DNA of 64,000 nucleotides from Candidatus Poribacteria bacterium. GTDB lineage: Bacteria; Poribacteria; WGA-4E; WGA-3G. The stretch covers positions 15,476-79,475 of the forward strand of contig JAPPES010000036.1 in NCBI GenBank assembly GCA_028824125.1, in the 5' to 3' direction. Position 1 is the first letter of the stretch, and each line of letters begins with the position of its first letter. Of the stretch, positions 937 to 43,846 are shown piece after piece. Both the position numbers and the translations under genes were made by a program. Under the pieces are notes generated by a model. The model saw nothing but the letters and a program-made list of their open reading frames with translations. It was not told where the DNA came from and did not search any database.

Positions 937-1132
937 TTGTTTTCGCCTTCCTACAATTGCGAGCGAATTTATCTACTTTCTCACGTGCATTACATACTGT
1001 TGCTCCAATTATAGCATTTTTCAAAAATTATGTAAAGGTTTTGCAGGTTGTCAAAAACGAAAAACTTGCAATTTTCAAAAAAATTTGGTAGAATTAGAAT
1101 GAATCCCTTTCAATTAGGAGGATGTATACTAA

Positions 1133-1363
1133 ATGGACATTAGAATTGAGTACTGCACATCTTGAAACTATAAACCACGGGCAGCCAGTTTGGCAAAAGC
1201 CTTAGAAGAACAATATAGTGGTCAGGTTAAAGAAGTGAAGCTTGTTGAAAGTAGTGGTGGTGCTTTTGAAGTATATCTAAATGAAGAATTGCTCTACTCC
1301 AAATTAGAGTCACGACAATTTCCGACAACGGAACAGATCACCACAGCGATTGACAAAGTATAA
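1133..1363 (+). CDS. selW: SelW/Rdx-family selenoprotein, 76 aa, with an in-frame UGA (Sec) at 1163..1165
   Basis: An AGGAGG RBS lies 11 nt upstream of the ATG at 1133. The translation is MDIRIEYCTS-U-NYKPRAASLAKALEEQYSGQVKEVKLVESSGGAFEVYLNEELLYSKLESRQFPTTEQITTAIDKV. It shows the CxxU redox motif, the GGAFEV motif and the conserved SK...RFP motif of the Rdx/SelW family. The ORF track stops at the TGA, but the frame continues in family-typical sequence to the TAA at 1361. Confidence 0.75.
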
Positions 1364-1372
1364 CAAATAGTT

Positions 1373-1409
1373 ATGGGCATGGTAGTACTACCATGCCCAT
1401 TCTTTTTTT
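1373..1409 (+). terminator. Rho-independent terminator downstream of the SelW-like gene
   Basis: A perfect 12 bp stem (atgggcatggta / taccatgcccat) is followed by a ttcttttttt run, immediately after the TAA. Confidence 0.8.
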
Positions 1410-6907: not shown

Positions 6908-7663
6908 TTATAATGCACTTTTCACGATTTCAGCGAAGGATTCGGCTTGAAGGCTTGCGCCGCCGACCAAGGCACCATCTACATCGGGTTGTGCCATTAA
7001 TTCTGCTGCGTTTTCTGGTTTTACGCTGCCACCGTATTGAATACGTGTTTGAGATGCAACTTCATCCGAATATGCATCTGTCAATAATTTCCGAATAAGA
7101 CTGTGTACTTCTTGTGCTTGTGCTGGCGTTGCGGTTTTACCTGTTCCGATTGCCCAGACAGGTTCATAAGCTACAACGCTGGACAACAATTGCGCATCTG
7201 ATAAATCAGCAATGCCTCCTGTGATATGATCTTCAATAACCGTTTCGGTACGACCTGCTTCACGGTCTTCAAGTTGTTCACCCACACAGATAATAGGTTT
7301 CAAATCGTGAGATAATGCGGCTTTCACTTTTTGATTGACACTCTCGTTTGTCTCACCGAAGTATTGCCGCCGTTCTGAATGCCCGATAATAACGTAGTCA
7401 CACCCTACATCTTTCAACATCGGTGCTGATACTTCACCTGTAAATGCGCCGCTATCTTCCCAATAAACATCTTGTGCAGCGAGATGAATGTTGCTGCCTT
7501 TTAGGACACCACTTACAGCATGAAGCGCAGTAAAAGTTGGCGCTACAATTATTTCTACTCCAGTGCAGTCAGTAACTAAACCTTTTAGCTCTGTTGTCAG
7601 GGCAACTGCTTCTGAAATTGTGTTATTTAGTTTCCAATTTCCTGCTATGATAGGTGTTCGCAT
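6908..7663 (-). CDS. tpiA: triosephosphate isomerase
   Basis: The N-terminus is [14 protein letters not shown], and IGHSERR and [11 protein letters not shown] are present. The start was chosen at an internal Met with an AGGAAGG RBS. Confidence 0.9.
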
Positions 7664-7676
7664 AGTCCTTCCTATT

Positions 7677-8768
<1,092 letters not shown>

Positions 8769-9093
8769 TTACCAACTCACAATATAGATTCTCATACTAA
8801 GTCATTGAATAATTTGCAATTAAGTGATTTATCTATAAAAACTTTAATAATTATACCTCAAAATGTAATAAATTGCAAATGTGTTATTGGGTTATAGATT
8901 TGGCTTGACCTTTTTAGATAAGATATGCTATTATCTTCGTAAAGGTAGGCGTAAGAAGTGATCTTATGAACCCAAAGAGACCAGAACATTCGTTCTTCAA
9001 GAAAAAGCAGGTAAAAGGCGCAATTTATTGCGCGATCACAAACAGAAAATAAAATTTGTAACAAATATCAATTTTAGAGGAGAAATCACAGAC

Positions 9094-10473
9094 ATGTCCT
9101 ATTTAAATCCGTTACGGCAAACGTCAAAAACAACACATCTCGCAACATTAGGGATGGGCCTGCTCTGCTTAATGTTCTTGTGGAGTTGCCAGTCGCCGGA
9201 TAAGCAACAGGATCAACTCATTATAATATCACCACATCCGGAAAGTATTGAGACAGAATTCGGCAGTAATTTTGAAAAATGGTATGAAGCAGAGACAGGC
9301 AGACCTGTCAAAACGGATTGGCGAGATGTCGGTGGTACTTCAGACAATTATCGGTTCATTGAATCTGAGTTTAAACGTGTGCCTGATGGTATCGGGATTG
9401 ATATTTTCTTTGGCGGTGGTACCGACAATTATCTCCGTTTGGCTGAAATGGATTTGTTGACTTCATACAAACTGCCCGATGCCCAATTAGCACAGATTCC
9501 GCAGTCGTATCATGGGATTCCTGTCTACGATTCTAAACAACGGTGGTATGGTGCGGCGTTATCAAGTTTCGGTATTATGTATAATGATCAGCTGCGTGAG
9601 CTGAAAAACTTACCGAAAGCTACAAAATGGGAGGATTTGGGAGACATCGCGTTGATCAATCAAATTGGTGCTGCTGATCCGAGAAATAGCGGTAGTGCAC
9701 ACATGATGTATGAGATTATCCTTCAGACACACGGATGGGAAAAAGGGTTTGCGCTCCTCACGAAATTGGGCGGAAACGTGAAGAAGTTCTCTGCTGGTGC
9801 CAATGTTATTCCAAGAGATGTTGGAAATGGTCAAGTGATTTACGGGTTAGCGATTGATTTTTATGCTTATAGCCAGATTGCAGCACTTGGTCATGAAAAA
9901 ATCAAATATGTTCTACCAACCGATGGCATTGTTGTCAATCCTGACTCCATCGCAATTCTGAAAGGTGCACCGAACATGGCGGTAGCGAAAAAATTTGTTG
10001 AGTTCGTTTTGTCTGAACAGGCGCAAAAACTGTGGATGCTGCGCGACACCGATGCGGAGGGACCTAAATGGAAAGGGGGATTGAACCGTGCCAGTGTACT
10101 ACCCGTGTTGTATGACGAATTGGGAGATCGGTGTGTTGTAAATAACCCGTTTGCCTTGGAATTGTCGCCATTTCCTTATGATGCTGATAAAGGTAGCGCA
10201 CGGTGGGATATTGTCAACGATCTCTTCGGAATTCTCATTATTGATTCACATATAGACCTTGTTGATGCGTGGAAAGCGATCGCGGCATGTAAAGACGATG
10301 CGAAGCGCGAGGCGGCAATCACAGCCATGGTGGAAATGCCGATTACTGAGGACGAGGCGATGCAAGTTGCCGCTGATAAATGGAAAGACCCTATCTATCG
10401 CAACGAGCAGATTAAAGAGTGGGGTCAATTCGCTAAGCAGAAGTTCAAAAAAGCAAAAGATTTGGCGCAGTGA
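9094..10473 (+). CDS. extracellular solute-binding protein (ABC-transporter SBP family 1-like), lipoprotein
   Basis: A GAGGAG RBS precedes the start. A signal peptide with a lipobox-like LWSC is present. The fold is periplasmic-binding, with the DIFFGGGTDNY motif. Confidence 0.6.
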   Translation: MSYLNPLRQTSKTTHLATLGMGLLCLMFLWSCQSPDKQQDQLIIISPHPESIETEFGSNFEKWYEAETGRPVKTDWRDVGGTSDNYRFIESEFKRVPDGIGIDIFFGGGTDNYLRLAEMDLLTSYKLPDAQLAQIPQSYHGIPVYDSKQRWYGAALSSFGIMYNDQLRELKNLPKATKWEDLGDIALINQIGAADPRNSGSAHMMYEIILQTHGWEKGFALLTKLGGNVKKFSAGANVIPRDVGNGQVIYGLAIDFYAYSQIAALGHEKIKYVLPTDGIVVNPDSIAILKGAPNMAVAKKFVEFVLSEQAQKLWMLRDTDAEGPKWKGGLNRASVLPVLYDELGDRCVVNNPFALELSPFPYDADKGSARWDIVNDLFGILIIDSHIDLVDAWKAIAACKDDAKREAAITAMVEMPITEDEAMQVAADKWKDPIYRNEQIKEWGQFAKQKFKKAKDLAQ

Positions 10474-10912: not shown

Positions 10913-10947
10913 CTAATCAAAAGACCAATTTGCTATTGAGGTATCAG

Positions 10948-13920
10948 ATGATATACGATGATGCGAACTTGATTCAACGAACCTTAGAAGGGGATCAACA
11001 AGCGTTTGCAGAACTTGTGGAAAAATACCAAAAACAGGTCCACGCATTAGCGTGGCAGAAGATCGGTGATTTTCACATTGCCCAAGAGATTACACAGGAT
11101 ACGTTCCTTACGGCATATCACAAGCTCACGACGCTCAAAGACCCTAATCGTTTTGCGGGATGGCTCTATGTGATTGCGAACCGCAAATGCATCGCGTGGC
11201 ACCGAAAGAAGTCCCCACAACCACAATCTTTAGAAGCGATGAACCCGATTGAATTAGAGGAGGTATATTATTCAGTGTATATGACTCAAAAACGCGAAGA
11301 AGCAGCAAATCAAAAACGACGTGAAGTGGTGCAGAAGTTGCTCAGTAAGCTGCAAGAGAGTGAACGCACAGTTGTCAATCTGTATTACATCGCAGAAATG
11401 ACATGTGAAGATATTGGCAAATTTTTAGGCGTATCTCCAAATACCGTCCGCAGCCGACTTCACCGCGCACGCAACCGTTTAAGGAAGGAAGAAACGATGA
11501 TTAAGGAAAACTTAAGTAGCTTCCAACTGCCGACACAATTGACGGAAAACATCATGAAAGAGATTTCACACATCAACCCTGCTGCACCGTCCGGTAGCAA
11601 ACCTTTACTACCATGGGCAATTGCTGCTTCCACGTTAGCAGTTGTGTTGCTTATGCTCGGTTTTGGAAACCACCAGTACCTAACGCGTTTTCAGAAACCT
11701 TATAGTTTTGACGCTGCCACTGAAATGACGGTTGACATCATTGACGCACCAATAGTCGTGAACCTTGAGTCCAAACCTGATGTGCAGACGCAAATCGGAA
11801 GTTTTATTGCATTAGACGAACTCAATAATTCTGAACAACAACCTAATAATGCTTCTGCAGCGATTGCAGAAGCACAAGGAGACGAAATAGTGGAAGATTA
11901 CACAAAATGGGAATTGCCGAAAGAAGCGAAAGCGCGTTTTGGCAAAGGTGGGATTAATGTGCTTCGATTTTCACCAGATGGTAGACAACTCGCGGTAGGT
12001 AGTAGTATAGGTACTTGGCTTTATGATGTGAAAACGGGGAAAGAACTGTCTATGTTCCCCGGTAAATGCAAATTCATCACATTCTCTCCAGATGGCCGCT
12101 TCCTTGCGAATATTGTTACCGGGAAGGTAACCCAGTTGTGGGAAGTAGCTACCGGGCAGAAAGTATTATTCAATGATAGTTTACCGAAAGCCTCAGTATT
12201 GCGATTCTCTGAAGACGGTAAAACACTTTATGCTTTGAGTGCCGAGGGAGATTCAATCAGTCAGTTAGATGTTAAAACAGGAAAAGGGAGTGTAAAGCAT
12301 ACTGAAGAGCAAACAAGCGGGGAGTCTTTAGTTCTTTTTGCGCTCACACATGATAAATTTGCAGTCGGAACAGAAACTAAGATTGAATTGTGGGACACAA
12401 CGACCGGCAAAATACTGTCTACACTCAAGGGAAATATGTCTCTTTTAACCTTGGAATTTTCACCTGATGGCACACGTGTCGCGAGTGCAGGTAAGAGTAG
12501 CGATAACACAGTCACATTACAATTATGGGATACCGAAAGTAAGGAGTCAACTCTCCTCCATAAACACAAAAGGTGGGTCAACGCGTTAGCATTCTCTCCT
12601 GACGGAAAAATGCTGGCAAGCGGCGGGACTGATAAGACAGTGCAGTTGTGGGATTCCGCCACCGGTGAGCCTCTTACCACTTTCACAGGTCATAGCAGCG
12701 GCATCAATGCTTTAACATTTTCACCAGATAATCGCACACTTGCCAGTGGGAGTGCAGATGGCACAGTCCGGTTTTGGAATATTAAGACGGGAGATCCATT
12801 ACCCACCCGCATCTACCAACACACAATGGAGGTGGAAGCAGTGACTTTCTTTAAAGATAACGCCACGCTTGCAAGTGTCGCGTATGATGGGGTCGTTAGC
12901 TTGTGGGATGTGAAAACATTACAAAAAATCGATACCAAAACATTACGAAAAACTGATTTCTACCATAAAGAAGATCAAGATAGAGAATACCAAGATTGGT
13001 TATCGGCTGCAGCGTTTTCACCTGATGGGACAAAGATCGTCAGTGCTGGTGTAAAAGGTAACAGACTCTTCTCAGATTACGCTATGGCTGAGTATACAGA
13101 GGATCAATTGGTTCGTCTGAGTGATGTTAGGACAGGCCATGAATTGCAGACTTTAGCTAAGGAAGGAGGTTCCTCATTCGTGACTTTTTCACCTGATGGA
13201 AAAACGGTGGCATTCGCCAATTTTGGTAAGATTCGCGTATGGAATACGGAGACAGATGAGACTTTTGATATATCTCTCGATATGTTATCTCTCGATATAT
13301 CTCACTTAGATCAAAATGATATTGACAAGTTATCTGACCAACGTAAGTCAGAAATCAGTGCACTTAAGCCTGGTATCAGTGCTTTGGTTTTTTCACCGGA
13401 CGGTGAAAAACTTATCAGTGGAACCCATGGCGGAAAGGCCCAGATGTGGGATGTGAAAACGGGAGTTCCGTTAGCACGCCTTTTTGAAGGGAAGGAACCG
13501 ATAGTAGAAGGCATTCCCCCTAATATTCATATCACCTATCAGGAACATATTCGAACATTGGCATTCTCACCAAATGGGAATTTGATTGCTATAGCAAATA
13601 ACAAACGAACCCATTTGCTACGTTTGTTGGCAGGCCATAAACATTCCCTTCTTAAGGAAATTCCGCATAGTGCCTATGCGTTAGTGTTTTCACCAAATAA
13701 TACTTTGCTTGTTATTGGACTTAGAAACGGTGCAATTGAGCTATGGGATGTTGAAACTTGGGACAAACTTACCACACTCGATGGGCATTCAGGAGCAGTA
13801 GGAACGTTGGTGTTCTCACCCGATGGCAAAACACTCGTGAGTACAGGGCAAGATGGCACAATTCTTTTGTGGGATTGGGATGAGGTTCTAAAGGGTTCCA
13901 ACCGAGAGAAAAATAAGTAA
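10948..13920 (+). CDS. ECF sigma factor domain - single TM helix - WD40 beta-propeller fusion protein
   Basis: The N-terminus has sigma-70 region 2 (HALAWQKIGDFHIAQEITQDTFL...FAGWLYVIANRKC) and region 4 (ERTVVNLYYIAEMTCEDIGKFLGVSPNTVRSRLHRARNRL). A hydrophobic helix (LLPWAIAASTLAVVLLMLGF) follows. After that come many WD repeats (LWDTTTGK, LWDSATGE, LWDVKT...). The ATG at 10948 was chosen by alignment to the paralog N-termini (MIYDDANLIQRTLEGD), with GAGGT as RBS. Confidence 0.8.
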   Translation: MIYDDANLIQRTLEGDQQAFAELVEKYQKQVHALAWQKIGDFHIAQEITQDTFLTAYHKLTTLKDPNRFAGWLYVIANRKCIAWHRKKSPQPQSLEAMNPIELEEVYYSVYMTQKREEAANQKRREVVQKLLSKLQESERTVVNLYYIAEMTCEDIGKFLGVSPNTVRSRLHRARNRLRKEETMIKENLSSFQLPTQLTENIMKEISHINPAAPSGSKPLLPWAIAASTLAVVLLMLGFGNHQYLTRFQKPYSFDAATEMTVDIIDAPIVVNLESKPDVQTQIGSFIALDELNNSEQQPNNASAAIAEAQGDEIVEDYTKWELPKEAKARFGKGGINVLRFSPDGRQLAVGSSIGTWLYDVKTGKELSMFPGKCKFITFSPDGRFLANIVTGKVTQLWEVATGQKVLFNDSLPKASVLRFSEDGKTLYALSAEGDSISQLDVKTGKGSVKHTEEQTSGESLVLFALTHDKFAVGTETKIELWDTTTGKILSTLKGNMSLLTLEFSPDGTRVASAGKSSDNTVTLQLWDTESKESTLLHKHKRWVNALAFSPDGKMLASGGTDKTVQLWDSATGEPLTTFTGHSSGINALTFSPDNRTLASGSADGTVRFWNIKTGDPLPTRIYQHTMEVEAVTFFKDNATLASVAYDGVVSLWDVKTLQKIDTKTLRKTDFYHKEDQDREYQDWLSAAAFSPDGTKIVSAGVKGNRLFSDYAMAEYTEDQLVRLSDVRTGHELQTLAKEGGSSFVTFSPDGKTVAFANFGKIRVWNTETDETFDISLDMLSLDISHLDQNDIDKLSDQRKSEISALKPGISALVFSPDGEKLISGTHGGKAQMWDVKTGVPLARLFEGKEPIVEGIPPNIHITYQEHIRTLAFSPNGNLIAIANNKRTHLLRLLAGHKHSLLKEIPHSAYALVFSPNNTLLVIGLRNGAIELWDVETWDKLTTLDGHSGAVGTLVFSPDGKTLVSTGQDGTILLWDWDEVLKGSNREKNK

Positions 13921-14280
13921 ATACGTGAGTTCGGAAAAAGATTTAGGGTTATAGAGAAAGTCATGCGTCCTTGATTGCTGGCGTTGTGTGAATGGTTTTA
14001 TTGACGGGATACAAGAAGCGTGTTATAATAGTCCTGCAAACAATTAGTGTTCAACACGTGTTTGTACTTGCATTATCCTGAAGGCAGGTTCGCCTCCTGT
14101 CATCGGCGGGTGGCCGGGGATAATACACGTCCTGCGTGGAGACGAAAACCTTGCACTTAAAATTATTGTAAACCCGCTCAAAATTAGCGGAGGCTTTGAA
14201 AATTCAATCTGTTTTTGGAATAATGGGTAAAGGTTAAGGCAGAAAAAGTAAAATATAACACCAATAGGAGATATATTTCA

Positions 14281-16473
14281 ATGCCACACTCAAAATTCTC
14301 TTTCTTTTTATTCATTTTCCTATTAATCACAGTGGTTACTTTCATTGCACAACTTGAGGCAGAAGAGGTGAGCAACGAACAGGAGCGCGCGATAACACAA
14401 GAATTCATCACAGCGGCACAAAAATTCGTAGAACTTGGTGAAATAGATAAAGCAATAGAAATCTACGAACGAATTGTGAAGGGTACCCCCGATGATTTAG
14501 AATCTCGCGCACAACTCGCAACGCTTTACACCCGCACAAAACAATATGAAAAAGCTGCGCAAACATGGGAAAAATTGCTTGAAACTGACCCAGAAAACAC
14601 AAAATATCAAGATGGTCTTGTTTATAGTTTACGAGCTGTTGGTGAAGTGGACGAGGCATTTGAAATTGCGCAGGCATACATCCAAACGGAGCCAGAAGTG
14701 GGTGCCCATTATGCACGCCTCGCAAGGTTGTATGAGGCAGAAGGTAAGGTAGGTGAGGCCATTACCAACTACGAAAAAGCAATTGAATTGGCACCCGGTG
14801 ATGTACAAGTACAAACTTATCTCAAACTCGCAAACCATTATTTTTTAAATGAGGACATAGCGGCTGCTGAAAAAATATTGAAGAATGCCATGCTATACAC
14901 ACGATCAGAATTCGATAGGCGAGATATCGAACTGCAATTGATCAAACTCTATCTTTATCAGGGGAATTTGGGAGAAGTATTACAAAAGGTTGAAGCTGAA
15001 GGCATCCCACTCTCTTATGAAATATCAAATGCGAAAGAACGTGCACAGCACTTTCTCAACACTGGTGAATTGGAAAAATCTGCGGCTTATTTTAAGATAG
15101 CACTTGTAACAGCCAAGAGTTCTTATGATCGAGGTAGTATTTCTAATGAATTGCTCAAGGTCTACTTAGAACAAGACAGGACAGACTTGGCATTAGAACT
15201 CTACGAAGCAGAAGCATCAGAGCAGTCCAGATCAACACTTGTCGCAACAACTTTCGGCCCATTTGATATTAACGTCAAATTCGGTAGTGATGACGCACGC
15301 GAAATCCTGGTTAATACCTATAAAAATCGAGGGGAACTTGATGTGTTAAGAACGCTTTTAGAAGATAAACTTGAGAAAAACGCTGATAATCCTGCTGTTA
15401 TTGAAATGCTTGCTGAAATTTATTGGAATGTCAACGATTATCAGAAAGCTGCTGAAGCGTATCACGTCCTTAGCAAAGCAGAGTCGAACAATATCCGCAG
15501 CTTTTACTATGCAGCTGCTGCCTTCCAGAAAAGTAACCAGCCTGATATGGCAAAAGAGTTACTGAACCGAGCCGAAACCGCGCTTACATCTGTCAACTAT
15601 AGACAGGACGGATCATTCCTCGGCGCACTTGCTACCATCTGTCTTAAGAATGAAATGTATGAGCCGGCTATAAAACTCGCTGGTAACGCTATCATTGAAG
15701 CACAGAATTTCGTTGATCCGGATATAGAATTCATTTTGAATATCCGTAAAGATATCATTGAAGCACAGAATTCCGTTGATCCGGATATAGAACGCGTTGG
15801 TAACGCTATCATTGAAACACAGAATTCCGGTAACACTTTGGTTGTGAATGCATGTTTGAGGACCATTTGTAAAAGCCGCCTCGGCCTAGCTAAATACTAC
15901 AGTCAAAACAACATACCCGATAAAGCAATGGAACAGATGCAACAAACCGGCATTATTCATGAAAATGCGTGGTTGGTTCTCGGACCATTTGACAATACCA
16001 CAGGAATCGGATATGATACGGAGTACATTTTTGAAAACATGACACAGATTGATCTCACCGCAAAGTATGGGGGTGTCAACAAACAGATAAGTTGGAAAAA
16101 GTTTACGGATGCTGCTTTTGACGGTTTTATCGATCTCGGTAGGAATATCAATTGGCGTGTTGCTTATGCATGGGCAACTGTAACCTCACCTGATAAACGA
16201 GAAGTGTTTTTTAGATTTGGTAGTGATGACCAATCAAAAATATGGCTAAATGGCACAGAGGTATTCGCGGATACCAACGCTCAAACTGCAATACTTGACA
16301 GACACGCTATTCCTGTAACCCTCAAGGCAGGTAAAAACACTATCCTCGTCAAGGTTTGCAATGAGGAAATAGATTGGGGATTCTATCTACGGGTTACGGA
16401 TGCTGATGGAAAACCTTTCAAAGACTTGAAAATTAACAATATGCATGATAAATTGAAGAGTATGCATGAATAA
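14281..16473 (+). CDS. secreted TPR-repeat protein with a C-terminal ~180 aa beta-sandwich-like domain
   Basis: A signal peptide (MPHSKFSFFLFIFLLITVVTFIAQLEA) is followed by TPR-like helices. The C-terminal module is LGPFDN...WRVAYAWATVTSPDKREVFFRFGSDDQSKIWLNGTEVF...LVKVCNEEIDWGFYLRVTDADGKPF. Confidence 0.65.
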   Translation: MPHSKFSFFLFIFLLITVVTFIAQLEAEEVSNEQERAITQEFITAAQKFVELGEIDKAIEIYERIVKGTPDDLESRAQLATLYTRTKQYEKAAQTWEKLLETDPENTKYQDGLVYSLRAVGEVDEAFEIAQAYIQTEPEVGAHYARLARLYEAEGKVGEAITNYEKAIELAPGDVQVQTYLKLANHYFLNEDIAAAEKILKNAMLYTRSEFDRRDIELQLIKLYLYQGNLGEVLQKVEAEGIPLSYEISNAKERAQHFLNTGELEKSAAYFKIALVTAKSSYDRGSISNELLKVYLEQDRTDLALELYEAEASEQSRSTLVATTFGPFDINVKFGSDDAREILVNTYKNRGELDVLRTLLEDKLEKNADNPAVIEMLAEIYWNVNDYQKAAEAYHVLSKAESNNIRSFYYAAAAFQKSNQPDMAKELLNRAETALTSVNYRQDGSFLGALATICLKNEMYEPAIKLAGNAIIEAQNFVDPDIEFILNIRKDIIEAQNSVDPDIERVGNAIIETQNSGNTLVVNACLRTICKSRLGLAKYYSQNNIPDKAMEQMQQTGIIHENAWLVLGPFDNTTGIGYDTEYIFENMTQIDLTAKYGGVNKQISWKKFTDAAFDGFIDLGRNINWRVAYAWATVTSPDKREVFFRFGSDDQSKIWLNGTEVFADTNAQTAILDRHAIPVTLKAGKNTILVKVCNEEIDWGFYLRVTDADGKPFKDLKINNMHDKLKSMHE
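15683..15835 (+). repeat. in-frame tandem repeat (about 3 copies of ~48 nt) inside the TPR gene
   Basis: The unit atcattgaagcacagaattccgttgatccggatatagaa is repeated. It encodes AIIEAQNxVDPDIE. Confidence 0.7.
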
Positions 16474-16519
16474 TTCTAAAGTCTATCATAGTTATAACCT
16501 TAGGAGGGGATATATTTCA

Positions 16520-19500
16520 ATGCCACACTCAAAATTCTCTTTCTTTTTAATCATTTTCCTATTAATCACAGTGGTTACTTTCGTTGCAGAACTTGAGGCA
16601 GAAGAGGTGAGCAACGAACAGGAACGCGCGATAACACAAGAATTTATCGCAGCGGCGCAAAAATTCGTAGAACTTGGTGAAATAGATAAAGCAATAGAAA
16701 TCTATGAACGAATTGTGAAAGGCACACCTGAAGACTTGGAATCTCGCGCACAACTCGCAACACTTTACACACGCACAAATCAGCACGAAAAAGCTGCGCA
16801 AACCTACAGCAAACTGCTTGAAGCTGACCCAGAAAACATAAAATATCAAGATGCGCTTGTGAATAGCTTACAAACTGCTGGCAAACACAACGAGGCCCTT
16901 GAAATCGCGCAGACTTATGTTCAAATGCAGCCGGAAGTAGGTGTCCATTACGCACGACTCGCAAGACTTTATGAGGCAGAAGGTAATGAAGCTGCAGCCC
17001 TCGCAAACTATAAAAAAGCTACTGTATTCGAATACGGTGACGAAAAAATCTATCTCAGACTCGCAGAACATTATTTTCTTAATGATGACATAGATGCTTC
17101 TGAAAAAGCATTGAAAAACGCCATGATATACACTACATCAAAATGGGATCAAGAAAGGATTGAACGGCAATTGGTCAACCTCTATCGTTATCAGGGAAAT
17201 TTAGAAGAGATGCTACAGAAGGCTGAAGCGGAAGGCACACTCACATTCGAGATGCAAAAACAACGGGCACGACACTTTTACAATATTGGTGAATTGGAAA
17301 AAGCTGCTGTTCACCTTAAGAAAGCTTTGGAAATGACTAATAGTTCTTATGAGCAAAATAAAATTTCTAATGAGTTGCTCAATGTCCATTTAAAACAAGA
17401 TAGTTTAGACTTGGCATTAGAACTCTACGAGACAGAAGCATCAAAGCAGACCGACTCAACATACATCTCAACATCTTTCAGTGTATCCGGTATTATAAGG
17501 ACATTAGGTGGTGATGATGCACGCAAAACTTTGATAAATGCCTATAAAAACCGAGGGAAACTTGATGTATTGAGAACCCTTTTTGAAGGTAAACTTGAAA
17601 AGGATGCTGCCAACCCTGCTATTATTGAAATGCTCGCTGAACTTTACTGGGATACCAATGATTATCAGAAAGCTGCTGAAGCATATCACATGCTTAGCAA
17701 AACTAAACCGATGAAGCGTAGGAATATTCGCAGCTTTTATCATGCAGCTGCTGCCTTTCACAAAAGCAACCAGCCTGATATGGTGAAAGCGATATTGAAC
17801 CAAGCCGATACTGAGCTTGCAGCCAGCAGCAACTTTAAGGAGGACACGTCATTCCTCGGGGCACTTGCCACTATCTGCATTAATAGTAAAATGTATGCCC
17901 CGGCTATAAAACTCGCCGATGCCGCTGTCACTGAAGCAGAGGCTTCCGGCGACAATTGGGAACTGGAGTATCTGTATGGGATTCTGGCGAAGAGTTACCT
18001 CGGCGCAAAACGTTATAAAGAGGCTTTTGAGGCATGTCAGCAGGTAGCAGATGTTGATGAGAATAGCTACGTGCGAGGAAGAGCAGAAATGGAAATGAAT
18101 AAAATTGCCAAAGAAGGAAAACTTTATGAAAAATGGATACCGGAACAACTGAAGAAGACTGCGGAGAATCCTAACGATCCGAAACCCATCTTGAAACTCG
18201 CCCAAAGTTACGAAGCCACTGATGAAATTGAAGAAGCGATTGCACAATATGAAAAACTCACTGAACTTGAACCAGAAAAATCACAGTGGCACAAAAAACT
18301 TGGAGAACTTTACCAAAATCTACCGCAAGAGAGCCGTGAAATAGGCACTGCGTCTGATGAGTTAAGCCCCGAACAATTGGCGAAATCAATAGCTGCTTAT
18401 GAAAAAGCAGTTGAACTTGAACCGACTTCATACCAACTTTACGACCTATTGGCGAAATCCCATATCAAATCTGATCGCACTTCTGATGCCGAAAAGATAT
18501 ATCGTCGGGCATTGGATGCCTCTCTAAAACAAAGTGAACATGATTCTGCAATTCGCGCTATTATCCAACTTTACGCTGATGAAGGGCAAGAAAACAAACA
18601 GATCGCTTTCCTTGAAGAGATACGTCAAAAATTGGCGAAAATGGATGATAGTGCTGTCCTGCACGAACTTTTAGGGGATCTCTACAAAAAAGTAGGTGAT
18701 TCCGAAAAAGCGGAACTCGCCTATGCCAAATGGTTGCAAATTCGGCAGAAAGCACTCAACAGCGCACAGAGTGCATGGAGTTATCATGTTTTTGCTAATA
18801 AACTTCTTGACAAAGGACTTTATCCAGAAATAGCACTAAATTTCGCGAAACGTGCGTTCCAAAAAAGTACAGATGCAAATTATATATATCCGACAACACT
18901 TGGACGTGCATGTGTTGCCAATGGACTTTATGATGAGGCACTAAAACATTTCAAACATGCGTTAAGTGTCATATCCGACGAGCATTATTCGGATATGTTT
19001 TGGGAGGAAATCGCTGAAGCAATCAAGAATGCCAATGACAAGGAACGTTACGTCCAAATGTTGGAAGCATTGACGAATGCCATTCCAGTGGAAAATTCAA
19101 GTTCTCGTGCAAATGTCTACCGGACTTTAGCGCAATTTTATAGTGAAAATAATATGCCTGAAAAAGCGGAAAACTACCTTTTAAAAACCGGTTTTGTTCC
19201 AGAAACTGCCTGGATTACCTTAGGCACATTCGACAATAAGGATAATATGGGTCCCTATATCGCTTACATCCCAGAGGAAGCCACACAGATTGACACAACT
19301 GCAAAGTATTATGGAAAAGATAAACTCATTCGTTGGCAAAAAGTGGATGACAACAAAATAGACGGAATGATCTGGCTCGGTAGTGACATTGATTGGACTG
19401 CAACTTATACATGGGCAATTGTCTCTTCACCTGATGAACGCGATATTACAATCCGATTTGATAGCGATGACCAAGGAATAGTCTGGTTAAACGGAAAAGA

Positions 19501-20317
19501 GGTTTTTAGGCATGATAGAATGAGTGGGGCACAAGTTGACCGCTACATCGTTCCTGTTACCCTGAAGCAAGGAGAAAACACTGTTCTCCTCAAGGTCTGC
19601 AATGCAGAAATATATACGTATTTTTTTATGCGGCTTACGGACGTGGACGGTAATCCGTTTAAAGATTTGAAGTTCAAAAACGCTGATGAGTTGCTGAACG
19701 CGCCGCCTCCTACCAAACCGATCTTCCACGTAAACGTAAACCTCGGCCTAGCTGAATACTATAGTAAAAACAACATGCCCGATAAGGCGATGGAACAGAT
19801 TCGACAAACCGGTGTCATTCATGAAAATGCATGGCTGGTTCTTGGACCATTTGATAACACGGTGGGAATCGGATACAATACGAAATACATTCCCGAAGGC
19901 ACAACGCAGATTGATCTCACCGCAAAGTATGAAGGTGTCAACGAGCAGATAAGTTGGAAAAAGTTTACGGATGCTGCTTTAAACGGCTTTATTGATTTCG
20001 GTGAGGATGTCAATTGGCGTGTTTCCTACGCAATGGCAACCTTAACCTCTCCTGATGAACGAGAAGTGCTATTCCGATTTAGTAGTGATGACCAATCAAA
20101 AATATGGCTAAATGGTACAGAGGTATTCGCGGATGCCAACGCTCAATCAGCAATACTTGACAAAAACACTATTCCCGTAACGCTCAAGACAGGTAAAAAT
20201 ACCATCCTCGTCAAGGTTTGCAATGAGGAGATGAGTTGGGGATTCTATCTGCGGGTTACGGATGTTGATGGAAAACCTTTCAAAGACTTGAAAATTAACA
20301 ATGTGCAAGATAATTGA
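16520..20317 (+). CDS. secreted TPR-repeat protein, tandem paralog with two copies of the C-terminal beta-sandwich-like domain
   Basis: The first ~450 nt, including the RBS region (TAGGAGG) and signal peptide, are ~95% identical to 14260..14700. The LGxFDN...WLNG...KVCN...DGxPFKDLK module occurs twice (~19.15-19.69 kb and 19.74-20.31 kb). Confidence 0.7.
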   Translation: MPHSKFSFFLIIFLLITVVTFVAELEAEEVSNEQERAITQEFIAAAQKFVELGEIDKAIEIYERIVKGTPEDLESRAQLATLYTRTNQHEKAAQTYSKLLEADPENIKYQDALVNSLQTAGKHNEALEIAQTYVQMQPEVGVHYARLARLYEAEGNEAAALANYKKATVFEYGDEKIYLRLAEHYFLNDDIDASEKALKNAMIYTTSKWDQERIERQLVNLYRYQGNLEEMLQKAEAEGTLTFEMQKQRARHFYNIGELEKAAVHLKKALEMTNSSYEQNKISNELLNVHLKQDSLDLALELYETEASKQTDSTYISTSFSVSGIIRTLGGDDARKTLINAYKNRGKLDVLRTLFEGKLEKDAANPAIIEMLAELYWDTNDYQKAAEAYHMLSKTKPMKRRNIRSFYHAAAAFHKSNQPDMVKAILNQADTELAASSNFKEDTSFLGALATICINSKMYAPAIKLADAAVTEAEASGDNWELEYLYGILAKSYLGAKRYKEAFEACQQVADVDENSYVRGRAEMEMNKIAKEGKLYEKWIPEQLKKTAENPNDPKPILKLAQSYEATDEIEEAIAQYEKLTELEPEKSQWHKKLGELYQNLPQESREIGTASDELSPEQLAKSIAAYEKAVELEPTSYQLYDLLAKSHIKSDRTSDAEKIYRRALDASLKQSEHDSAIRAIIQLYADEGQENKQIAFLEEIRQKLAKMDDSAVLHELLGDLYKKVGDSEKAELAYAKWLQIRQKALNSAQSAWSYHVFANKLLDKGLYPEIALNFAKRAFQKSTDANYIYPTTLGRACVANGLYDEALKHFKHALSVISDEHYSDMFWEEIAEAIKNANDKERYVQMLEALTNAIPVENSSSRANVYRTLAQFYSENNMPEKAENYLLKTGFVPETAWITLGTFDNKDNMGPYIAYIPEEATQIDTTAKYYGKDKLIRWQKVDDNKIDGMIWLGSDIDWTATYTWAIVSSPDERDITIRFDSDDQGIVWLNGKEVFRHDRMSGAQVDRYIVPVTLKQGENTVLLKVCNAEIYTYFFMRLTDVDGNPFKDLKFKNADELLNAPPPTKPIFHVNVNLGLAEYYSKNNMPDKAMEQIRQTGVIHENAWLVLGPFDNTVGIGYNTKYIPEGTTQIDLTAKYEGVNEQISWKKFTDAALNGFIDFGEDVNWRVSYAMATLTSPDEREVLFRFSSDDQSKIWLNGTEVFADANAQSAILDKNTIPVTLKTGKNTILVKVCNEEMSWGFYLRVTDVDGKPFKDLKINNVQDN

Positions 20318-20326
20318 GGGGTGTGC

Positions 20327-20499
20327 ATAATTATTTTGCACATCAACACAGACAGGGACAGGCGCCATGTGCCGCTTGATTCATAGAAATGCTGTTTAAT
20401 CGCAATTCATTGCGCCTCTTTGAACTTGTGGACGGCACACGGCGTGTGCCTACTACCTTTAAGCGCATATTTAAATCGGAATTATTTATGCACACCCCT
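20327..20499. repeat. MITE-like element between convergent genes
   Basis: 19 bp terminal inverted repeats (gggtgtgcataattatttt / aattatttatgcacacccc) flank a segment containing the ggcacacggcgtgtgcc palindrome, the same palindrome as at 10482. The right arm overlaps the stop codon of the minus-strand sigma-fusion gene. Confidence 0.55.
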
Positions 20500-23400
20500 C
20501 ACTTAAGTTGGGTTGCGTCAAGCGTAATTTCCCATAACAGCAACGTGTCATCTCTACTTCCGCTTACGAGCGTTTTTCCATCCGGACTAAACGCGACATT
20601 CGTAACCTTGTCTGTATGCCCCACAAGGACAAGGATTTGTTGGATTGGACTTGTCTGCGTATTATACAGATAGATGGTGTTATCCGCGTTTCCACTTGCC
20701 AGTATTTTTCCATCTGGACTGAACGCCACGCTTAAAACTTCATTCAGATGCTCTACGGTTTTGAGGAGTTCCGCTGTTTGCACATCCCACACACGGATAG
20801 TGCCATCATGGCTCCCGCTTGTGAGTGTTTTTCCATCCGGACTGAACGCCACACTAAAGACAACACCCGTATGTCCTGTAAAGGTTTTCAGAAGTTCACT
20901 TGTCTGCACATCCCATAAACGGACGGTCGTATCTTTACTCCCACTTGCGAGCGTTTTTCCATCCGGACTGAACGCCACGCTCATAATCCAGTCGGTATGC
21001 CCTGAGAAAGTTTCGCGGAGTTCACCTGTCTGCACATCATACAAATGGAGGGTTTTATCCCAACTTGCACTTGCCAGGGTGTTACCATCTGGACTGAACG
21101 CTAAACTTGTGACAGTGTCTTTATGTCCTGTGAGTGTTTTGCGGGGTTTGCCAGTCTGGGCATCCCATAGACGGATAGCGCGAGCATAACCGCTGCTTGC
21201 CAGTGTTTTATTGTCGAAACTGAACGCTAAGCACGTGATCCCCGATTCACGTTGATCTTTAAGTGTCCGGTGAAGTGCGCCTGTCTGTGCATCCCATACA
21301 CGGATGATGTCATCATCAATAGAATTTACCAACATTTTTCCATCCGGGCTGAACACCACGCTTAAAACTTCGTTCATATACCCTTTAAGCGTTTTTTGAC
21401 GTTTGCCAGTTTGCGTATCCCACACGCGAATAGTCGTATCATAACTCCCAGTAGCGAGTGTTTTTCCATCCGGACTGAATACCACGTTAAGGACATCGTG
21501 CGTATGTCCTATAAGGATTCGGCGGCGTTCACCTGTTTGTGCATCCCATAAACGGACAGTGCCTTCATTCATTGCACTTGCCAGCGTTTTTCCATCCGGA
21601 CTGAACGCCATTTCATAGACAACGTCCCTTTCTTGTCCTTTGAGCGTTTTTTGGAGTTTTCCTGTCTGTACGTTCCACAAACGGATGGGGGTATCCCAAC
21701 CCCAAGCCCAAGTAGCGAGTGTTTTTCCATCCGGACTGAACGCCATTTCCAAAATCTCCTCCGTATGCTCAAGGTCAAAGGTTTTTCGGACTTCGCCTGT
21801 CTGCGTATCCCACAATCGGATAGAATTATCTCTACTTGCACTTGCCAACGTAGTGCCATCCCCACTGAGCCAAATACTAAAAATCCTATCTGTATGCCCC
21901 TCAAGAGTTGTATGGCTTTTGCCTGTCTGCGTAGCCCACAGTCGTATTGTGTTATTTCTACTGGCACTTGCCAGCATTTTGCCATCCCCACTAAAGACCA
22001 CGTTCGTGATCAGGGACATATTGTCTGTCATCGTCCGAAGATGTGTGCTGGTGCGCGTATCCCACAAGCGTATGCTGCCATCATCACTCCCACTTGCCAA
22101 TATGTTTCCATTTGGATTGAATGCTATGCTCTGGACCCAGTCCGTATGTTCTGTTAGCAGGTCAAGTTCTTTTCCGCTGTCTGAATCATAGATCCACACG
22201 CCAATTGAACTTGCAACAGCGAGCTGCTTACCATTCGGGGAATACGCAATTTTATTTATCCCTCCTTTACCAAGACGGACTTTAGCACCTTCGGGTAAGT
22301 GCCATTGCTGTGAATCTGGAGCATCTTTATCCGAGACCTCCTGCACAGCCACATTGTTCTTATTCTGCACATGAGAACTTGCAGGCTGCGTCTGGAAATT
22401 CGGTTGAGTTTCGAGGTCACCCACTGTGCGCGAGTGACCGACACTGTAATCTAAAACTAATGTATCAGCAGATAAATCTAAACGAAGCAACTTACTCACA
22501 TCGGTATTTAGCTGACACTGTTTCGTGAGAAATACGTCTTTGAATAGGACATTCTCTCCATTCTGTTTTTCCGAAGATTCTTTTGGAACAATAGACTTCT
22601 CAATTCTCTTAGGAAACCAGACATCTGGCAAGTATTCGTGATACTCAATTTTTCGGGTATTGATATAGGTTACACCCGCTTTGAAGGGACTCCATCCCAG
22701 CGGATCATCTGGTTCAATGTACTCTCTTTCTGATTTAACCAAACGGAAACCTTTGTCATGTGAAATCCAAAGTTTATAGTGCTGAGGAGATATTTCGTGA
22801 TCTCCAATGGTCCGAGCAGGTTTTGTTAGACGAATAACGGTTGTCTTTTCGCCATCCAATACCTCGCTTCCGATAATTTCACTTTCATGTTTTTCAAGCA
22901 ATTGCCAAAGCGGTTGCGATAGATAGGTATTGTCTGATACATTATTTGGAAAGGTGAGCCATAACCTCGGATCTTGGTCAACAGGCATGATCGCCCAATG
23001 CGGTCGAACAGCATATCCAACATTGTGTTTATAAACTTCCACCATTGTCTCTCCTACAAAAAGGACAAAGTAGGTTTTATCTTTCTCAATGACTCTGTAG
23101 CTGTTCTGTAACTCGCCTTTGACAATGCGCGCATCGTCAGCAATTTCAATGCCTACCTGTTTGAACGCTTGTTGGATCTTCTTTAGGACTGTAATCTCCT
23201 TGTTCAGTTTAATCTCAGCTTTGAAAAGAAGATTATCTGGTGAAGATACCTCCCAGTGTTGTTTTCCATCCCAATACTGAATTAGACCGAAACCTCCTGC
23301 TCCTCCATCTACCCGAACTTTCTCACCTTCAAATGTCAATTTATATTCATTTTTTTTGATCTTCGGCTCTATATTACGTTCAATGCTCAAATTACCTGGT

Positions 23401-24428
23401 GGAATTGGATTTCCACTAATCTTATAATTTCTATGACGTTCAATGATGAAATCACCAGTTACGGAGGTAACAGCATTATCGTAGTGCTTTATCTTAGCGA
23501 TAATCGTGTCTAAGTCAAGCGAAGCGGCGTCATCGGTTTGTTTGCCAGCTCCATTGTTCTTACCCGATGCATCGGGACTTTCAAGCTGCGTTCGTACATC
23601 CGGTTTTACATTAAGATTCTCCACAATAGGTACATCAATGAGTTCAACTACCATCTCAGCTTGTGCATCCAAACTATACGGTTTCTGGAAACGTACCAAG
23701 TATTGACTACTGATACCAAGCATCAATACAATCAATATTAAACTTGATGCCCCAATGACCCATGGTACCAAGGGTTTACCACCAGAAGGCGCGGCAGGTT
23801 TAAGTCGTGCGACTTCTCGCATAATATTATCGGTTAGGTTCGGTGAGATTTGGTAATTCTCTAAAGCTTCTCTTATCATTGTTTCCTCCTTTTGTAAACG
23901 TTGTCTGGCACGGTAAAGCCGATTCTTAATCGCACTTACCGATACACCTAAAAACTTGCTTATCTCTTCATACGTCATTCCCCCGAGGTAGTAGAGCGTG
24001 ATGACCGTGCGGTCACTCTCTTGTAGTTTTGCAAGCAACTTTTTAACGACTTCACGCTGTGCTTCTACTGATGCTCGTTCGTTTTCCGCAATGACATAAT
24101 TGGAATAAGTTGCCTTTTCCAACTCTGCATCGCAGGTGTGTTCCAAGGACTGTGTTCGCATACGTTTCTGACGAAGCCATGCCTTGCAACGGTTCGACGC
24201 TATCACATAGAGCCAACTTGCAAAAGACTGTGATTCCTTCAGCGTTGATAGTTTCTGATGCGCTTTCAGGAATGTTTCCTGTGTGATGTCCTCAGCAATG
24301 TGGAAATCTCCAATTTTCCGCCACGCTAACGCGTGAACCGACTTCTGATATTTTCTTACAAGCGCGGAGAACGCAGTATCATCACCATCAAGGATACGTT
24401 GGATGAGTTCAACATCAGCATTTTTCAT
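20499..24428 (-). CDS. ECF sigma factor domain - TM helix - ~400 aa middle domain - double WD40 propeller fusion protein (1309 aa)
   Basis: The N-terminus is MKNADVELIQRILDGDDTAF, with sigma region 2 (HALAWRKIGDFHIAEDITQETFL) and region 4 (DRTVITLYYLGGMTYEEISKFLGVSVSAIKNRLYRARQRL). The TM helix is LVPWVIGASSLILIVLMLGI. The C-terminus carries about 14 WD repeats. Confidence 0.8.
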   Translation of the reverse strand: MKNADVELIQRILDGDDTAFSALVRKYQKSVHALAWRKIGDFHIAEDITQETFLKAHQKLSTLKESQSFASWLYVIASNRCKAWLRQKRMRTQSLEHTCDAELEKATYSNYVIAENERASVEAQREVVKKLLAKLQESDRTVITLYYLGGMTYEEISKFLGVSVSAIKNRLYRARQRLQKEETMIREALENYQISPNLTDNIMREVARLKPAAPSGGKPLVPWVIGASSLILIVLMLGISSQYLVRFQKPYSLDAQAEMVVELIDVPIVENLNVKPDVRTQLESPDASGKNNGAGKQTDDAASLDLDTIIAKIKHYDNAVTSVTGDFIIERHRNYKISGNPIPPGNLSIERNIEPKIKKNEYKLTFEGEKVRVDGGAGGFGLIQYWDGKQHWEVSSPDNLLFKAEIKLNKEITVLKKIQQAFKQVGIEIADDARIVKGELQNSYRVIEKDKTYFVLFVGETMVEVYKHNVGYAVRPHWAIMPVDQDPRLWLTFPNNVSDNTYLSQPLWQLLEKHESEIIGSEVLDGEKTTVIRLTKPARTIGDHEISPQHYKLWISHDKGFRLVKSEREYIEPDDPLGWSPFKAGVTYINTRKIEYHEYLPDVWFPKRIEKSIVPKESSEKQNGENVLFKDVFLTKQCQLNTDVSKLLRLDLSADTLVLDYSVGHSRTVGDLETQPNFQTQPASSHVQNKNNVAVQEVSDKDAPDSQQWHLPEGAKVRLGKGGINKIAYSPNGKQLAVASSIGVWIYDSDSGKELDLLTEHTDWVQSIAFNPNGNILASGSDDGSIRLWDTRTSTHLRTMTDNMSLITNVVFSGDGKMLASASRNNTIRLWATQTGKSHTTLEGHTDRIFSIWLSGDGTTLASASRDNSIRLWDTQTGEVRKTFDLEHTEEILEMAFSPDGKTLATWAWGWDTPIRLWNVQTGKLQKTLKGQERDVVYEMAFSPDGKTLASAMNEGTVRLWDAQTGERRRILIGHTHDVLNVVFSPDGKTLATGSYDTTIRVWDTQTGKRQKTLKGYMNEVLSVVFSPDGKMLVNSIDDDIIRVWDAQTGALHRTLKDQRESGITCLAFSFDNKTLASSGYARAIRLWDAQTGKPRKTLTGHKDTVTSLAFSPDGNTLASASWDKTLHLYDVQTGELRETFSGHTDWIMSVAFSPDGKTLASGSKDTTVRLWDVQTSELLKTFTGHTGVVFSVAFSPDGKTLTSGSHDGTIRVWDVQTAELLKTVEHLNEVLSVAFSPDGKILASGNADNTIYLYNTQTSPIQQILVLVGHTDKVTNVAFSPDGKTLVSGSRDDTLLLWEITLDATQLK

Positions 24429-27800: not shown

Positions 27801-27854
27801 GGTTTCATCGTCTGCAAGAATTCGGTGAATAAGTGCAACATCGTCTTTTTTCAT
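24813..27854 (-). CDS. ECF sigma factor domain - TM helix - BNR/Asp-box repeat beta-propeller fusion protein (1013 aa)
   Basis: Sigma regions 2 and 4 are present (HALAWRKVGDFHIAEDITQDTFL; ERTVMTLHYLGEMTVEEISRFLGVSGSTIKSRLRRARQRL). The TM helix is LVPWIAAASSVVLIVLMLGI. The C-terminus carries multiple SxDxGxTW motifs (SLDDGETW, STDKGQSW, SIDNGNTW, SIDGGLSW, SSDKGQSW). Confidence 0.8.
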   Translation of the reverse strand: MKKDDVALIHRILADDETAFTELVKKYQKPVHALAWRKVGDFHIAEDITQDTFLKVYQRLHTLKDPNQFSGWLYVITTNLCNTWIRKKRIRTQPLEDAETTMTPKDAYSQHVTADRATTAAETQREVVKTLLAKLKESERTVMTLHYLGEMTVEEISRFLGVSGSTIKSRLRRARQRLQKEETMIREALDHFQISPNLTDNIMREVARLKPTPSVSKPLVPWIAAASSVVLIVLMLGIGSQYLVRFQQPYSLDAQTEMKVELINAPIVQNLEVEPDIQNQLGSANTLGKNNNDGQKPDEVLLAAVQSDEKGVSAPKQQWIQENSPVGSGELMTLLPTPEGEIYIVYDEGWEDILYKLPVDGTEWQPVCDISSLLPDTLYDAVSMVKSNDMIYIVLTLDGRQYSNELYGSLDDGETWVSFGKCPAGWVNGFEVLDDRFYLALEHEIFVSENIGKTWNVVGEGLTGEVSTLKVIQNTLFAATSTGLYHLDGGSWQRLQFPVNEAKKIVSFVGTENHLYVLGEWDWKNVGPQERTWWLFRSTDKGQSWTNITPTNALPIMGPEPFDKEPHATLVAVKNTLLLIGWRGAAVIRSIDNGNTWTLEKTSDISLMPYSVHNAVVLNENTLYLQGESGIYRSIDGGLSWTRFYTGLESSIIDLICVKTNKEQNISNYIYAMFSGSMGSKWVFKSSDKGQSWRVVNPEIQIQEHIPSFTRIAESDGVLYAKSRGPTSDALMSLYRISEDRNTLVPIKGMPVFRSSSLYNLLHYRQPAKGSDKPYFEQLQESSVGANQFFKQLAQMGSIHKNFRRLYQDPLYESGLKGPFAVSGDTFYLEYNFKLLRWEPGDTEWYDTGQEETVRLSRKIIEKELKLAVSGDTVYVGKRDGHLVVSYDRGNNRSWIDLTSALPFPVETFKEIMFAGSTVYVATDAGVTVSDNGIKWRAITDAEGTNLIMERLAADGTTVYGVTKGTGIYRLESGVWEKIISEIPDGVTSLVVDGSTLYVGTQNNGMLHYNLEQ

Positions 27855-40485: not shown

Positions 40486-41011
40486 TCAAAGAAAATCGGT
40501 TGTGGTTAGAGAGAGGAATTCAATTGTCATATCGGTGTGGAGCTGCTGAATAGTTGTAAAACAGATATTGATGTCGTTTTCACTGACACCGTCAAAATTG
40601 TCTACCTCTGTGCCCACGACTTTTCCCGTCAATATGGATATTCCCACTAAAGAGATATTTTGTGGCACGTGGGTTGAGGAAATTGTCCCTTGTCTTTTCA
40701 ATTATGTTGGTAGAATTGGCAAAAAATAGGAAGTTGCGGTAGCCATTTTCATAGAGGTAGAGGATTAAGCCTGCCATGATAAGCGTTTTGCCGCTGCCGA
40801 TTGCCATGTTGAAAAGTAGATGTAGGGGGTTTTCTTTACCGGGAAAATTGTTGTTAAAGCAGTGGATGAATCTTGCAAATGCGTCTGTTTGGTATTCGCG
40901 GAGTTCAAAAACGGGACTCAGGTTTTGCGTAATGCTATTGGGCATTTCCTTTTTCAGCATTCCAAAATTGGAGAGCGTATCAAGTTGTTCATATAGAAAT
41001 TGTTCAGGCAT
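40486..41011 (-). pseudogene. remnant of a type III (or type I) restriction enzyme Res / DEAD-like helicase subunit, truncated and frameshifted
   Basis: The 40592..41011 ORF has a Walker A motif (NMAIGSGKTLIMAGL) and a YQ...A motif. The downstream frame 40486..40701 continues with FTTIQQLHTDM. Together they cover only about 200 aa of a ~900 aa protein. Confidence 0.5.
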
Positions 41012-41278
41012 TGTTATTCCTTAATACCTCGTGCGTTATTTCGGAGAGGTCTACGTAGAATTGACTTTTACGCAATTTTTGTAGTATAATATAATTAATA
41101 GCCAGGGACGAAAATGGCTCCATGCCTGGTGATTGTCGGGCTGCGGTTCGCACAATTCTATATCCCCGGCTTTTTTATTTTCTCCACTGTAAAACCTTTG
41201 CTGTCACCGCCTTCGTCTACAAAATAGTGCCGAATTGAAGTAGGTGTTCCAGGGATTTGTCTATTCTCCATATTTGCG

Positions 41279-43615: not shown

Positions 43616-43846
43616 TGTTTCTCACCTCCTATAAAATCGTTTGTGTTACCTGCCATCTGAAATCAGCTGTTGCTAAAGCAGCTATACATGTTAACGCAAT
43701 AGAAAATAGAAAGATTGCAAAATTAAATTGCAGTGTTCCTACTGTTCCCTTTTCCAATAACTCTAATTCGTACTTTTTGGCTTCATACTATATCTGAATT
43801 GCGATTATATAGTGGATTCTACAATTAACTGGACATCTGATCTATA

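Follow-up and report, generated by a model that had tools for sequence, protein, structure and literature searches.

A SelW-like gene of Candidatus Poribacteria with an in-frame TGA probably read as selenocysteine and a compact candidate SECIS hairpin

Near the start of a 64,000-nt stretch of Candidatus Poribacteria DNA (the whole stretch analysed here, hereafter the window), an open reading frame with the hallmarks of selenoprotein W is broken at its eleventh codon by an in-frame TGA (1163-1165), and the question raised by this locus is whether that codon ends translation, is read as an ordinary amino acid, or directs the insertion of selenocysteine (Sec). Considering gene architecture, protein family, orthologues and RNA structure together, we find it very likely, from sequence comparison, that a monocistronic gene at 1133-1363 (forward strand) encodes a 76-aa thiol/selenol oxidoreductase of SelW-like type (Rdx family), with its UGA read as selenocysteine via a hairpin.

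Gene architecture and protein family

The predicted SelW-like coding sequence (1133-1363, +) comprises 76 codons and a TAA, with an ATG at 1133, the TGA as codon 11, 65 further in-frame codons and the stop at 1361-1363, and its translation yields a product of 76 aa (MDIRIEYCTS-U-NYKPRAASLAKALEEQYSGQVKEVKLVESSGGAFEVYLNEELLYSKLESRQFPTTEQITTAIDKV) with a redox motif of Cys8-Thr-Ser-Sec11 (TGC ACA TCT TGA, 1154-1165, +). Direct reading placed a Shine-Dalgarno (SD) sequence, AGGAGG, at 1116-1121 (+), 11 nt ahead of the ATG, while a consensus scan revealed a sigma-70-like site at 1066-1094 (+; TTGCAA, a 17-nt spacer with TG extension, TAGAAT; 9/12 matches) that may well be the promoter of the gene and whose TAnnAT-like element is retained among the closest relatives. 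Downstream, a terminator scan identified an intrinsic terminator at 1373-1409 (+) with a 12-bp stem (1373-1400), a 4-nt loop and a T-run to 1409, and a terminator hairpin of differing stem sequence lies at the equivalent place in most orthologous loci. Because the gene has its own sigma-70-like site before it and this stem and T-run after it, the unit looks monocistronic. These readings bear out most of what the initial annotation had claimed of the gene, namely the AGGAGG ribosome-binding site, an ORF that stops at TGA 1163..1165 with a frame continuing for 65 codons to give 76 aa, a CTSU redox motif and a clean terminator; of the two family motifs that it cited, GGAFEV is present (aa 42-47), while 'SK..RFP' was slightly inaccurate, the actual sequence being SKLESRQFP.

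The gene is flanked upstream by a shikimate kinase gene and downstream by lactonase, enoyl-CoA hydratase (ECH) and cupin genes, all on the opposite strand, and in distant relatives the SelW-like gene remains syntenic with the last three. Mobile elements were also seen, including a fragment of a DDE transposase in the window (55463-56059, -) and, in the related locus L002, full insertion sequence (IS) copies (1046-1924 and 8929-9807 of that locus) that flank the region immediately upstream of the SelW gene, which shows local IS activity around an otherwise syntenic SelW locus.

Family assignment was evaluated with profile models, after replacing Sec by Cys for scoring, and with structure prediction. 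The 76-aa product matched Pfam Rdx (PF10262) with an E-value of 2.5e-25 (88.9 bits vs a cutoff of 22.6; 72 of 74 profile positions covered) and NCBIfam TIGR02174 (CXXU_selWTH) with 80.4 bits vs a cutoff of 34.2, and it fell short of the cutoff of the Campylobacter equivalog NF041051 (SelTWH_Campy; 85.9 bits vs 88), so that by these scores it is related to that equivalog and not a member of it. Sequence search of the PDB returned MIEN1 (2LJK), SAV_2001 (3DEX), Atu0228 (2FA8) and other 'selenoprotein W-related' proteins, the CxxC of every one of these homologues aligning onto the CxxU of the SelW-like product. Modelling with AlphaFold2 on 13 close homologues (pLDDT 91.7) gave the order beta1(3-8)-loop-alpha1(14-27)-beta2-beta3-beta4-alpha2, with C8-T-S-U11 falling in the beta1-alpha1 loop. 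Foldseek matched this model to bacterial SelW-related crystal structures at TM 0.89-0.93 (TM 0.93 to 2FA8, 2OBK and 2P0G), ranking 21 SelW-related structures at TM of about 0.9 first, then mouse SelW and then thioredoxins. Together, the HMM scores, PDB matches and modelled fold establish membership of the Rdx/SelW-like family, as first proposed from the sequence alone, and the alignment and fold put the TGA where the motif has its second redox residue. The alignment to Cys-containing SelW homologues that had been put forward as a check gave the same picture, with the CxxC of the PDB homologues on the CxxU and Cys forms among the family representatives described below.

Conservation and decoding of the in-frame UGA

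Scanning one genome per species, we recovered at least 80 loci, all from Poribacteria or metagenome-assembled genomes (MAGs), which with three loci fetched earlier made 83; the gene was extracted from 80 of these, and adding the window and one truncated duplicate gave an alignment of 82 rows. TGA stands at codon 11 in all 80 loci that yielded the gene, with no Cys form among the loci listed, and the motif is CTSU in 58 rows, CTAU in 20 and CSAU in 4. At the nucleotide level the window is 93-96% identical to OZ244889.1 and MAG PCPOR2a across the aligning regions only. A description of this Poribacteria SelW-like orthologue group was not found in the searchable literature.

Beyond the phylum, a profile search of 1.84 billion representatives returned 912 matching proteins, of which the best 150 were examined and 149 classified, one repetitive 828-aa match being set aside. 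Among these best 149, the motif was CxxW in 83, CxxC in 41 and CxxG in 7, and 11 were N-terminally truncated; as the query comprised W-containing homologues, the top matches are biased toward CxxW forms. The CxxW representatives are presumably cases of TGA translated as Trp, and a mixture of CxxW and CxxC at this codon would then be the classical signature of a Sec/Cys pair. At the gene level, TGC or TGT stands in the place of the Sec codon in 28 unique Cys-form genes from metagenomes.

Whether the phylum can decode UGA as Sec bears directly on this reading. The 64-kb window itself holds none of selA, selB, selD or a tRNA-Sec gene (ARAGORN, Rfam, and Pfam on 40 large ORFs), and ARAGORN found no tRNA, hence no tRNA-Sec, in the window or in 60 related loci. 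COG counts for SelA/SelB/SelD are available for other members of the phylum (PMC5649159 Table S4), being 2/1/1 in Ca. Poribacteria bin70, 4/1/2 in bin44 and 2/1/1 in the single-cell genome WGA-3G, and the locus from this last genome (L081) has the same TGA gene. Sec-containing group 4 hydrogenases are also reported from Poribacteria MAGs in PMC13582414. We infer that the Sec machinery is maintained across Poribacteria, since otherwise a TGA in every examined locus, with no reversion to Cys, would be hard to explain.

A reading that keeps SelB and the hairpin and changes only the amino acid is that cysteine is delivered by an allo-tRNA of the tRNA(ReC)/selC* type, giving a CxxC protein. Such tRNAs are cited in PMC13582414 as mediating SECIS-dependent UGA recoding, a minority of the Sec-type genomes there having tRNA(ReC)-like genes, and the features of the window fit Sec and Cys equally. 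We nevertheless regard Cys delivery as very unlikely, given that there is no evidence for a tRNA(ReC)-type tRNA in Poribacteria, that COGs for Sec synthesis (SelA and SelD) are reported for genomes of the phylum, and that a plain TGC would suffice, yet none of the Poribacteria loci listed has reverted to Cys, which argues that Sec itself is under selection.

Turning from Sec insertion to termination, the TGA could be a true stop, the product being either a 10-aa leader peptide or a 57-aa protein initiated at TTG 1190, or the gene could be a pseudogene. Gene callers and NCBI do annotate 57-aa proteins for 13 homologues, and the TTG is present at 1190. Several lines of evidence make a true stop highly improbable, however. 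First, a product initiated after the TGA would, by the AlphaFold2 model, be without strand beta1 and the entire redox motif, the parts that define the fold. Second, all 82 sequences have an SD-like core (GGAG, GAGG or AGGA, mostly as GGAGG) within 20 nt before the ATG corresponding to 1133 (GTG in one locus) and not before the TTG, and the non-coding flanks around this core diverge among orthologues. Third, codons 2-10 evolve as coding sequence in frame with the remainder, the peptide M-D/E-I/V-R/K-I-E-Y-C-T/S-S/A being kept while third positions vary freely (e.g., ACN at codon 9, GAR at codon 6). Finally, exactly one TGA, at the catalytic position, is present in every locus across 65-96% protein identity, which is not expected of a pseudogene.

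Returning to a translated UGA, selenium-independent decoding by a tRNA that is near-cognate or reassigned (Trp or Gly, as in codes 4 or 25) could be read from public catalogues, where W stands at the codon for 14 of 27 close homologues and 83 of the best 149 family representatives. It is exceedingly unlikely, as the W calls are translation-table artefacts (the database protein P0006 differs from the L081 translation solely in having W at the TGA), Trp at a resolving or attacking residue of CxxC would abolish redox activity, and a frozen hairpin would be left unexplained. Genome-wide reassignment is excluded, and the standard code indicated, because in the window TGA terminates 11 of the 35 long ORFs and because the Pfam domains of neighbouring genes are full length under code 11. 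When the window was scanned blindly for further TGA-interrupted ORFs, about 150 candidates appeared, and those inspected were without a redox motif or plausible continuity.

The candidate SECIS hairpin

The sequence following the UGA contains a candidate bacterial SECIS (bSECIS) hairpin at 1179-1202 (+), delineated by RNAalifold, synonymous-site conservation and the bSECIS model. It consists of a lower stem GGGC/GCCU, a bulged A1183, an upper stem GCCA/UGGC, an apical loop GUU (1188-1190) and a 3' internal loop AAAA (1195-1198); the core GGC-A-GCCA-GUU-UGGC-AAAA-GCC spans 1180-1201, with an extra flanking G.U pair at 1179/1202. The hairpin starts 13 nt past the UGA with the G.U pair counted and 14 nt without it. 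The initial annotation had described just such an element 13-14 nt downstream, with a G(U) loop and a bulged lower stem, and it was recovered here with one closing pair more, within the bounds of the bSECIS model and with a nucleotide constraint that is missing in Cys-form homologues.

Alignment of 61 distinct sequences from the UGA to +53 with RNAalifold returned eight pairs (numbering from the U of UGA as 0), G16.U39, G17-C38, G18-C37, C19-G36, G21-C31, C22-G30, C23-G29 and A24-U28, leaving unpaired the bulged A20, the apical loop G25-U26-U27 and a 4-nt 3' internal loop (32-35). All eight pairs are intact throughout (0 broken of 61 x 8 cells), with the closing pair being GU in 53 sequences, AU in 5 and GC in 3, and with one sequence changing G-C to G.U elsewhere. 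The remaining variation is confined to unpaired sites (the bulge, the third loop base and the internal loop); the Poribacteria consensus is GGGC-A-GCCA-GUU-UGGC-ARAW-GCCU. No double compensatory changes were seen in the eight pairs across the 61 sequences, so the structural support is one of conservation and not of covariation.

This conservation extends to synonymous sites. Within the hairpin, R16 is CGG in 76/76 sequences, A17 GCA in 76/81, A18 GCC in 81/81, S19 AGT in 81/81, L20 TTG in 79/80, A21 GCA in 73/81 and A23 GCC in 80/80, while residues elsewhere in the gene that are equally conserved and have four- or six-fold codons are each spelled in three to six ways, and mean codon entropy is 0.15 bits within the hairpin vs 1.23 outside (Mann-Whitney p 1.8e-4). 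Some of this nucleotide conservation stems from the protein level, the AASLA peptide being conserved across the family. As an external control we used Cys-form homologues with the P-x-A-A-S-L peptide at the equivalent place, amounting to 28 distinct TGC/TGT genes. These use all synonymous alternatives, with Ser as AGT in 14 and AGC in 13, and Leu as CTT in 10, CTG in 10, TTA in 4, CTC in 3 and TTG in 1, and no common hairpin emerged among their predicted folds. Because the Cys-form genes vary the AASLA codons freely, the nucleotide constraint tracks the TGA and not the peptide.

Folding of the 66-nt region was no better than that of shuffled sequences (z = -0.62, not significant), so that the case for the hairpin rests on comparative data and not on thermodynamics. 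The 22-mer of the hairpin is found at a single place in the window, against 0 expected from shuffled sequence. Rfam gave no SECIS-like family, either for the whole window at the gathering threshold or for 1100-1420 at E up to 10, the weak matches being driven by the terminator.

Comparison to a published bSECIS model (PMC13188914) places the element within its bounds, several parameters lying only at the lower limit. The model has an apical loop of 3-9 nt, an upper stem of 4-16 bp, a G within the first two loop positions, a UGA-to-loop spacing of 16-37 nt and a minimum free energy (MFE) of -7.5 kcal/mol or lower; the Poribacteria element has a loop of 3 nt (GUU), an upper stem of 4 bp, the G at the first loop position, a spacing of 22 nt and a borderline MFE of -8.0 kcal/mol in context and -7.4 kcal/mol as an isolated 24-mer. 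There is a slim chance that what we describe is an unusually minimal SECIS (24 nt, 8 bp, GUU loop), which would be a near-minimal natural SelB-binding determinant if sufficient for Sec insertion, or else that the phylum's SelB recognises the element differently or that Cys is inserted via a tRNA(ReC)-type tRNA. That the frozen nucleotides of 1179-1202 instead serve some non-SECIS role (internal promoter, sRNA target, mRNA stability), an idea to which an overlapping sigma-70-like match (TTGGCA-18-TATAGT, 1190-1219) lends something, is extremely improbable, as the -10-like hexamer varies (half of the orthologues have TATGGT), the block of conservation falls exactly on the paired bases, with the bulge, third loop position and internal loop left variable, the constraint is missing from Cys-form genes, and the hairpin position and loop sequence agree with the bSECIS model.

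Proposed mechanism, relation to known systems and significance

Taking the selenocysteine reading forward, the gene would be transcribed from its own promoter and translated from the ATG at 1133 with the strong SD ahead of it, the UGA at codon 11 being read as selenocysteine and not as a stop. The 24-nt hairpin 13 nt 3' of the UGA (loop GUU, 22 nt from the UGA) would recruit SelB-GTP-Sec-tRNA(Sec) to the ribosome through contact between its G-U loop and the C-terminal domain of the loaded SelB, whereupon Sec would be inserted and translation would proceed. This step of SelB binding and Sec insertion is modelled on the established SelB-SECIS mechanism of E. coli and Moorella and is thus proposed here by analogy. 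The product is predicted to adopt a thioredoxin-like beta-alpha-beta-beta-beta-alpha fold with Cys8 and Sec11 in the beta1-alpha1 loop, where the two residues could cycle between a reduced state and a reversible selenenylsulfide.

Prokaryotic SelW-like selenoproteins (PF10262, TIGR02174) resemble the Poribacteria gene in domain, size, a CxxU at the beta1-alpha1 loop and an in-ORF SECIS right after the UGA, and no other family of prokaryotic selenoproteins is as abundant in marine metagenomes (GOS has 427 forms with Sec and 56 with Cys; PMC2398784). The Poribacteria group is public only as 57-aa truncations or W-containing mistranslations. Among proteins of known structure, the closest are the Cys-form SelW-related structures (2FA8 Atu0228, 2OBK, 2P0G, 2OJL, 2OKA, 3DEX), which superpose with the model at TM 0.89-0.93 and an rmsd of 1.0-1.4 A and differ in having Cys for Sec, about 25-33% identity and longer chains (103-108 residues deposited). 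Mammalian selenoprotein W (2NPB) and MIEN1 (2LJK) share the Rdx fold and the position of CxxU/CxxC, with lower structural similarity (TM 0.69-0.71). Eukaryotic SelW relies on a 3'-UTR SECIS with SBP2 and eEFSec; unlike it, the Poribacteria element is located within the ORF beside the UGA, as in bacteria.

The reference bacterial element is the E. coli fdhF SECIS. Like it, the Poribacteria hairpin is positioned immediately 3' of the UGA, with a G-U in the apical loop, a bulged base under the upper stem and a loop G about 20 nt from the UGA. It is, however, much shorter and weaker (8 bp, -7.4 to -8.0 vs about -14 kcal/mol), has a 3-nt GUU loop whose G is one codon farther from the UGA, and shows no sequence similarity to the fdhF element.

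The wider window holds several other features, which we record as observations in their own right. Four giant eukaryote-like repeat proteins lie in a row at 10930-24428, with WD40 (996 and 1309 aa) and TPR (730 and 1283 aa) repeats; such giant proteins are typical of Poribacteria and fit, or are consistent with, the taxonomic assignment. They are followed by two adjacent paralogues of about 1000 aa (24813-27854 and 28025-31012, -) in which an N-terminal ECF sigma-70 part (regions 2 and 4) is joined to a BNR/Sortilin-like beta-propeller, an unusual sigma-factor fusion. A complete Pup-proteasome cluster at 43976-50734 (-) comprises two genes of the Pup-ligase family (PafA/Dop-like), those for the alpha and beta subunits of the proteasome, and one for an AAA ATPase of Mpa/ARC type that carries OB domains; Actinobacteria are where pupylation is best known, and the presence of this cluster in Poribacteria is worth recording.

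Smaller features lie beside these. Type III restriction-modification (R-M) pieces at 40592-43307 (-), namely the N-terminal part of a ResIII (139 aa) and a TypeIII_RM_meth (215 aa) with an unassigned 462-aa ORF between them, occupy a stretch of lower GC (0.386) that looks like a degraded or rearranged R-M locus. Next to it are a 21-bp tandem repeat (43500-43566, 3.2 copies) and an adjoining intergenic element of roughly 100 nt (43836-43947) with two matches in a further Poribacteria genome, L009 (97% over 97 nt and 84% over 113 nt), which may be a small dispersed repeat or MITE. The ORFs for TIM and GAPDH (6908-7768 and 7677-8708, -) overlap by 92 nt, an effect of the upstream TTG from which the mechanical TIM ORF was drawn; with the TIM domain beginning only at residue 39, the real TIM start lies further downstream.

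The SelW-like gene matters mainly as an annotation error, a 57-aa truncation or a Trp at the Sec position in public catalogues. The standard ORF list for the window contains a 57-aa TTG-started ORF (1190-1363) and nothing upstream, and close homologues in the protein database are of two kinds, 57-aa proteins starting just past the TGA, some of them named 'Candidatus Poribacteria', and 76-aa proteins with Trp at the TGA. Large metagenomic protein sets likewise carry systematic mistranslation across the SelW-like family (83 Trp, 7 Gly and 11 truncated after the Sec position among the best 149 of 912 matches).

Biologically the gene adds little, as SelW-like proteins are already the most abundant marine prokaryotic selenoproteins and in-ORF SECIS hairpins are textbook. 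What is mildly unusual is the very small size of the SECIS and the near invariance of its paired positions throughout the phylum, and this compact, phylum-wide element could serve as the seed of a covariance model with which to look for further Poribacteria selenoproteins. With all 80 extractable loci in the Sec form and none in the Cys form, Sec decoding is probably maintained across Candidatus Poribacteria.
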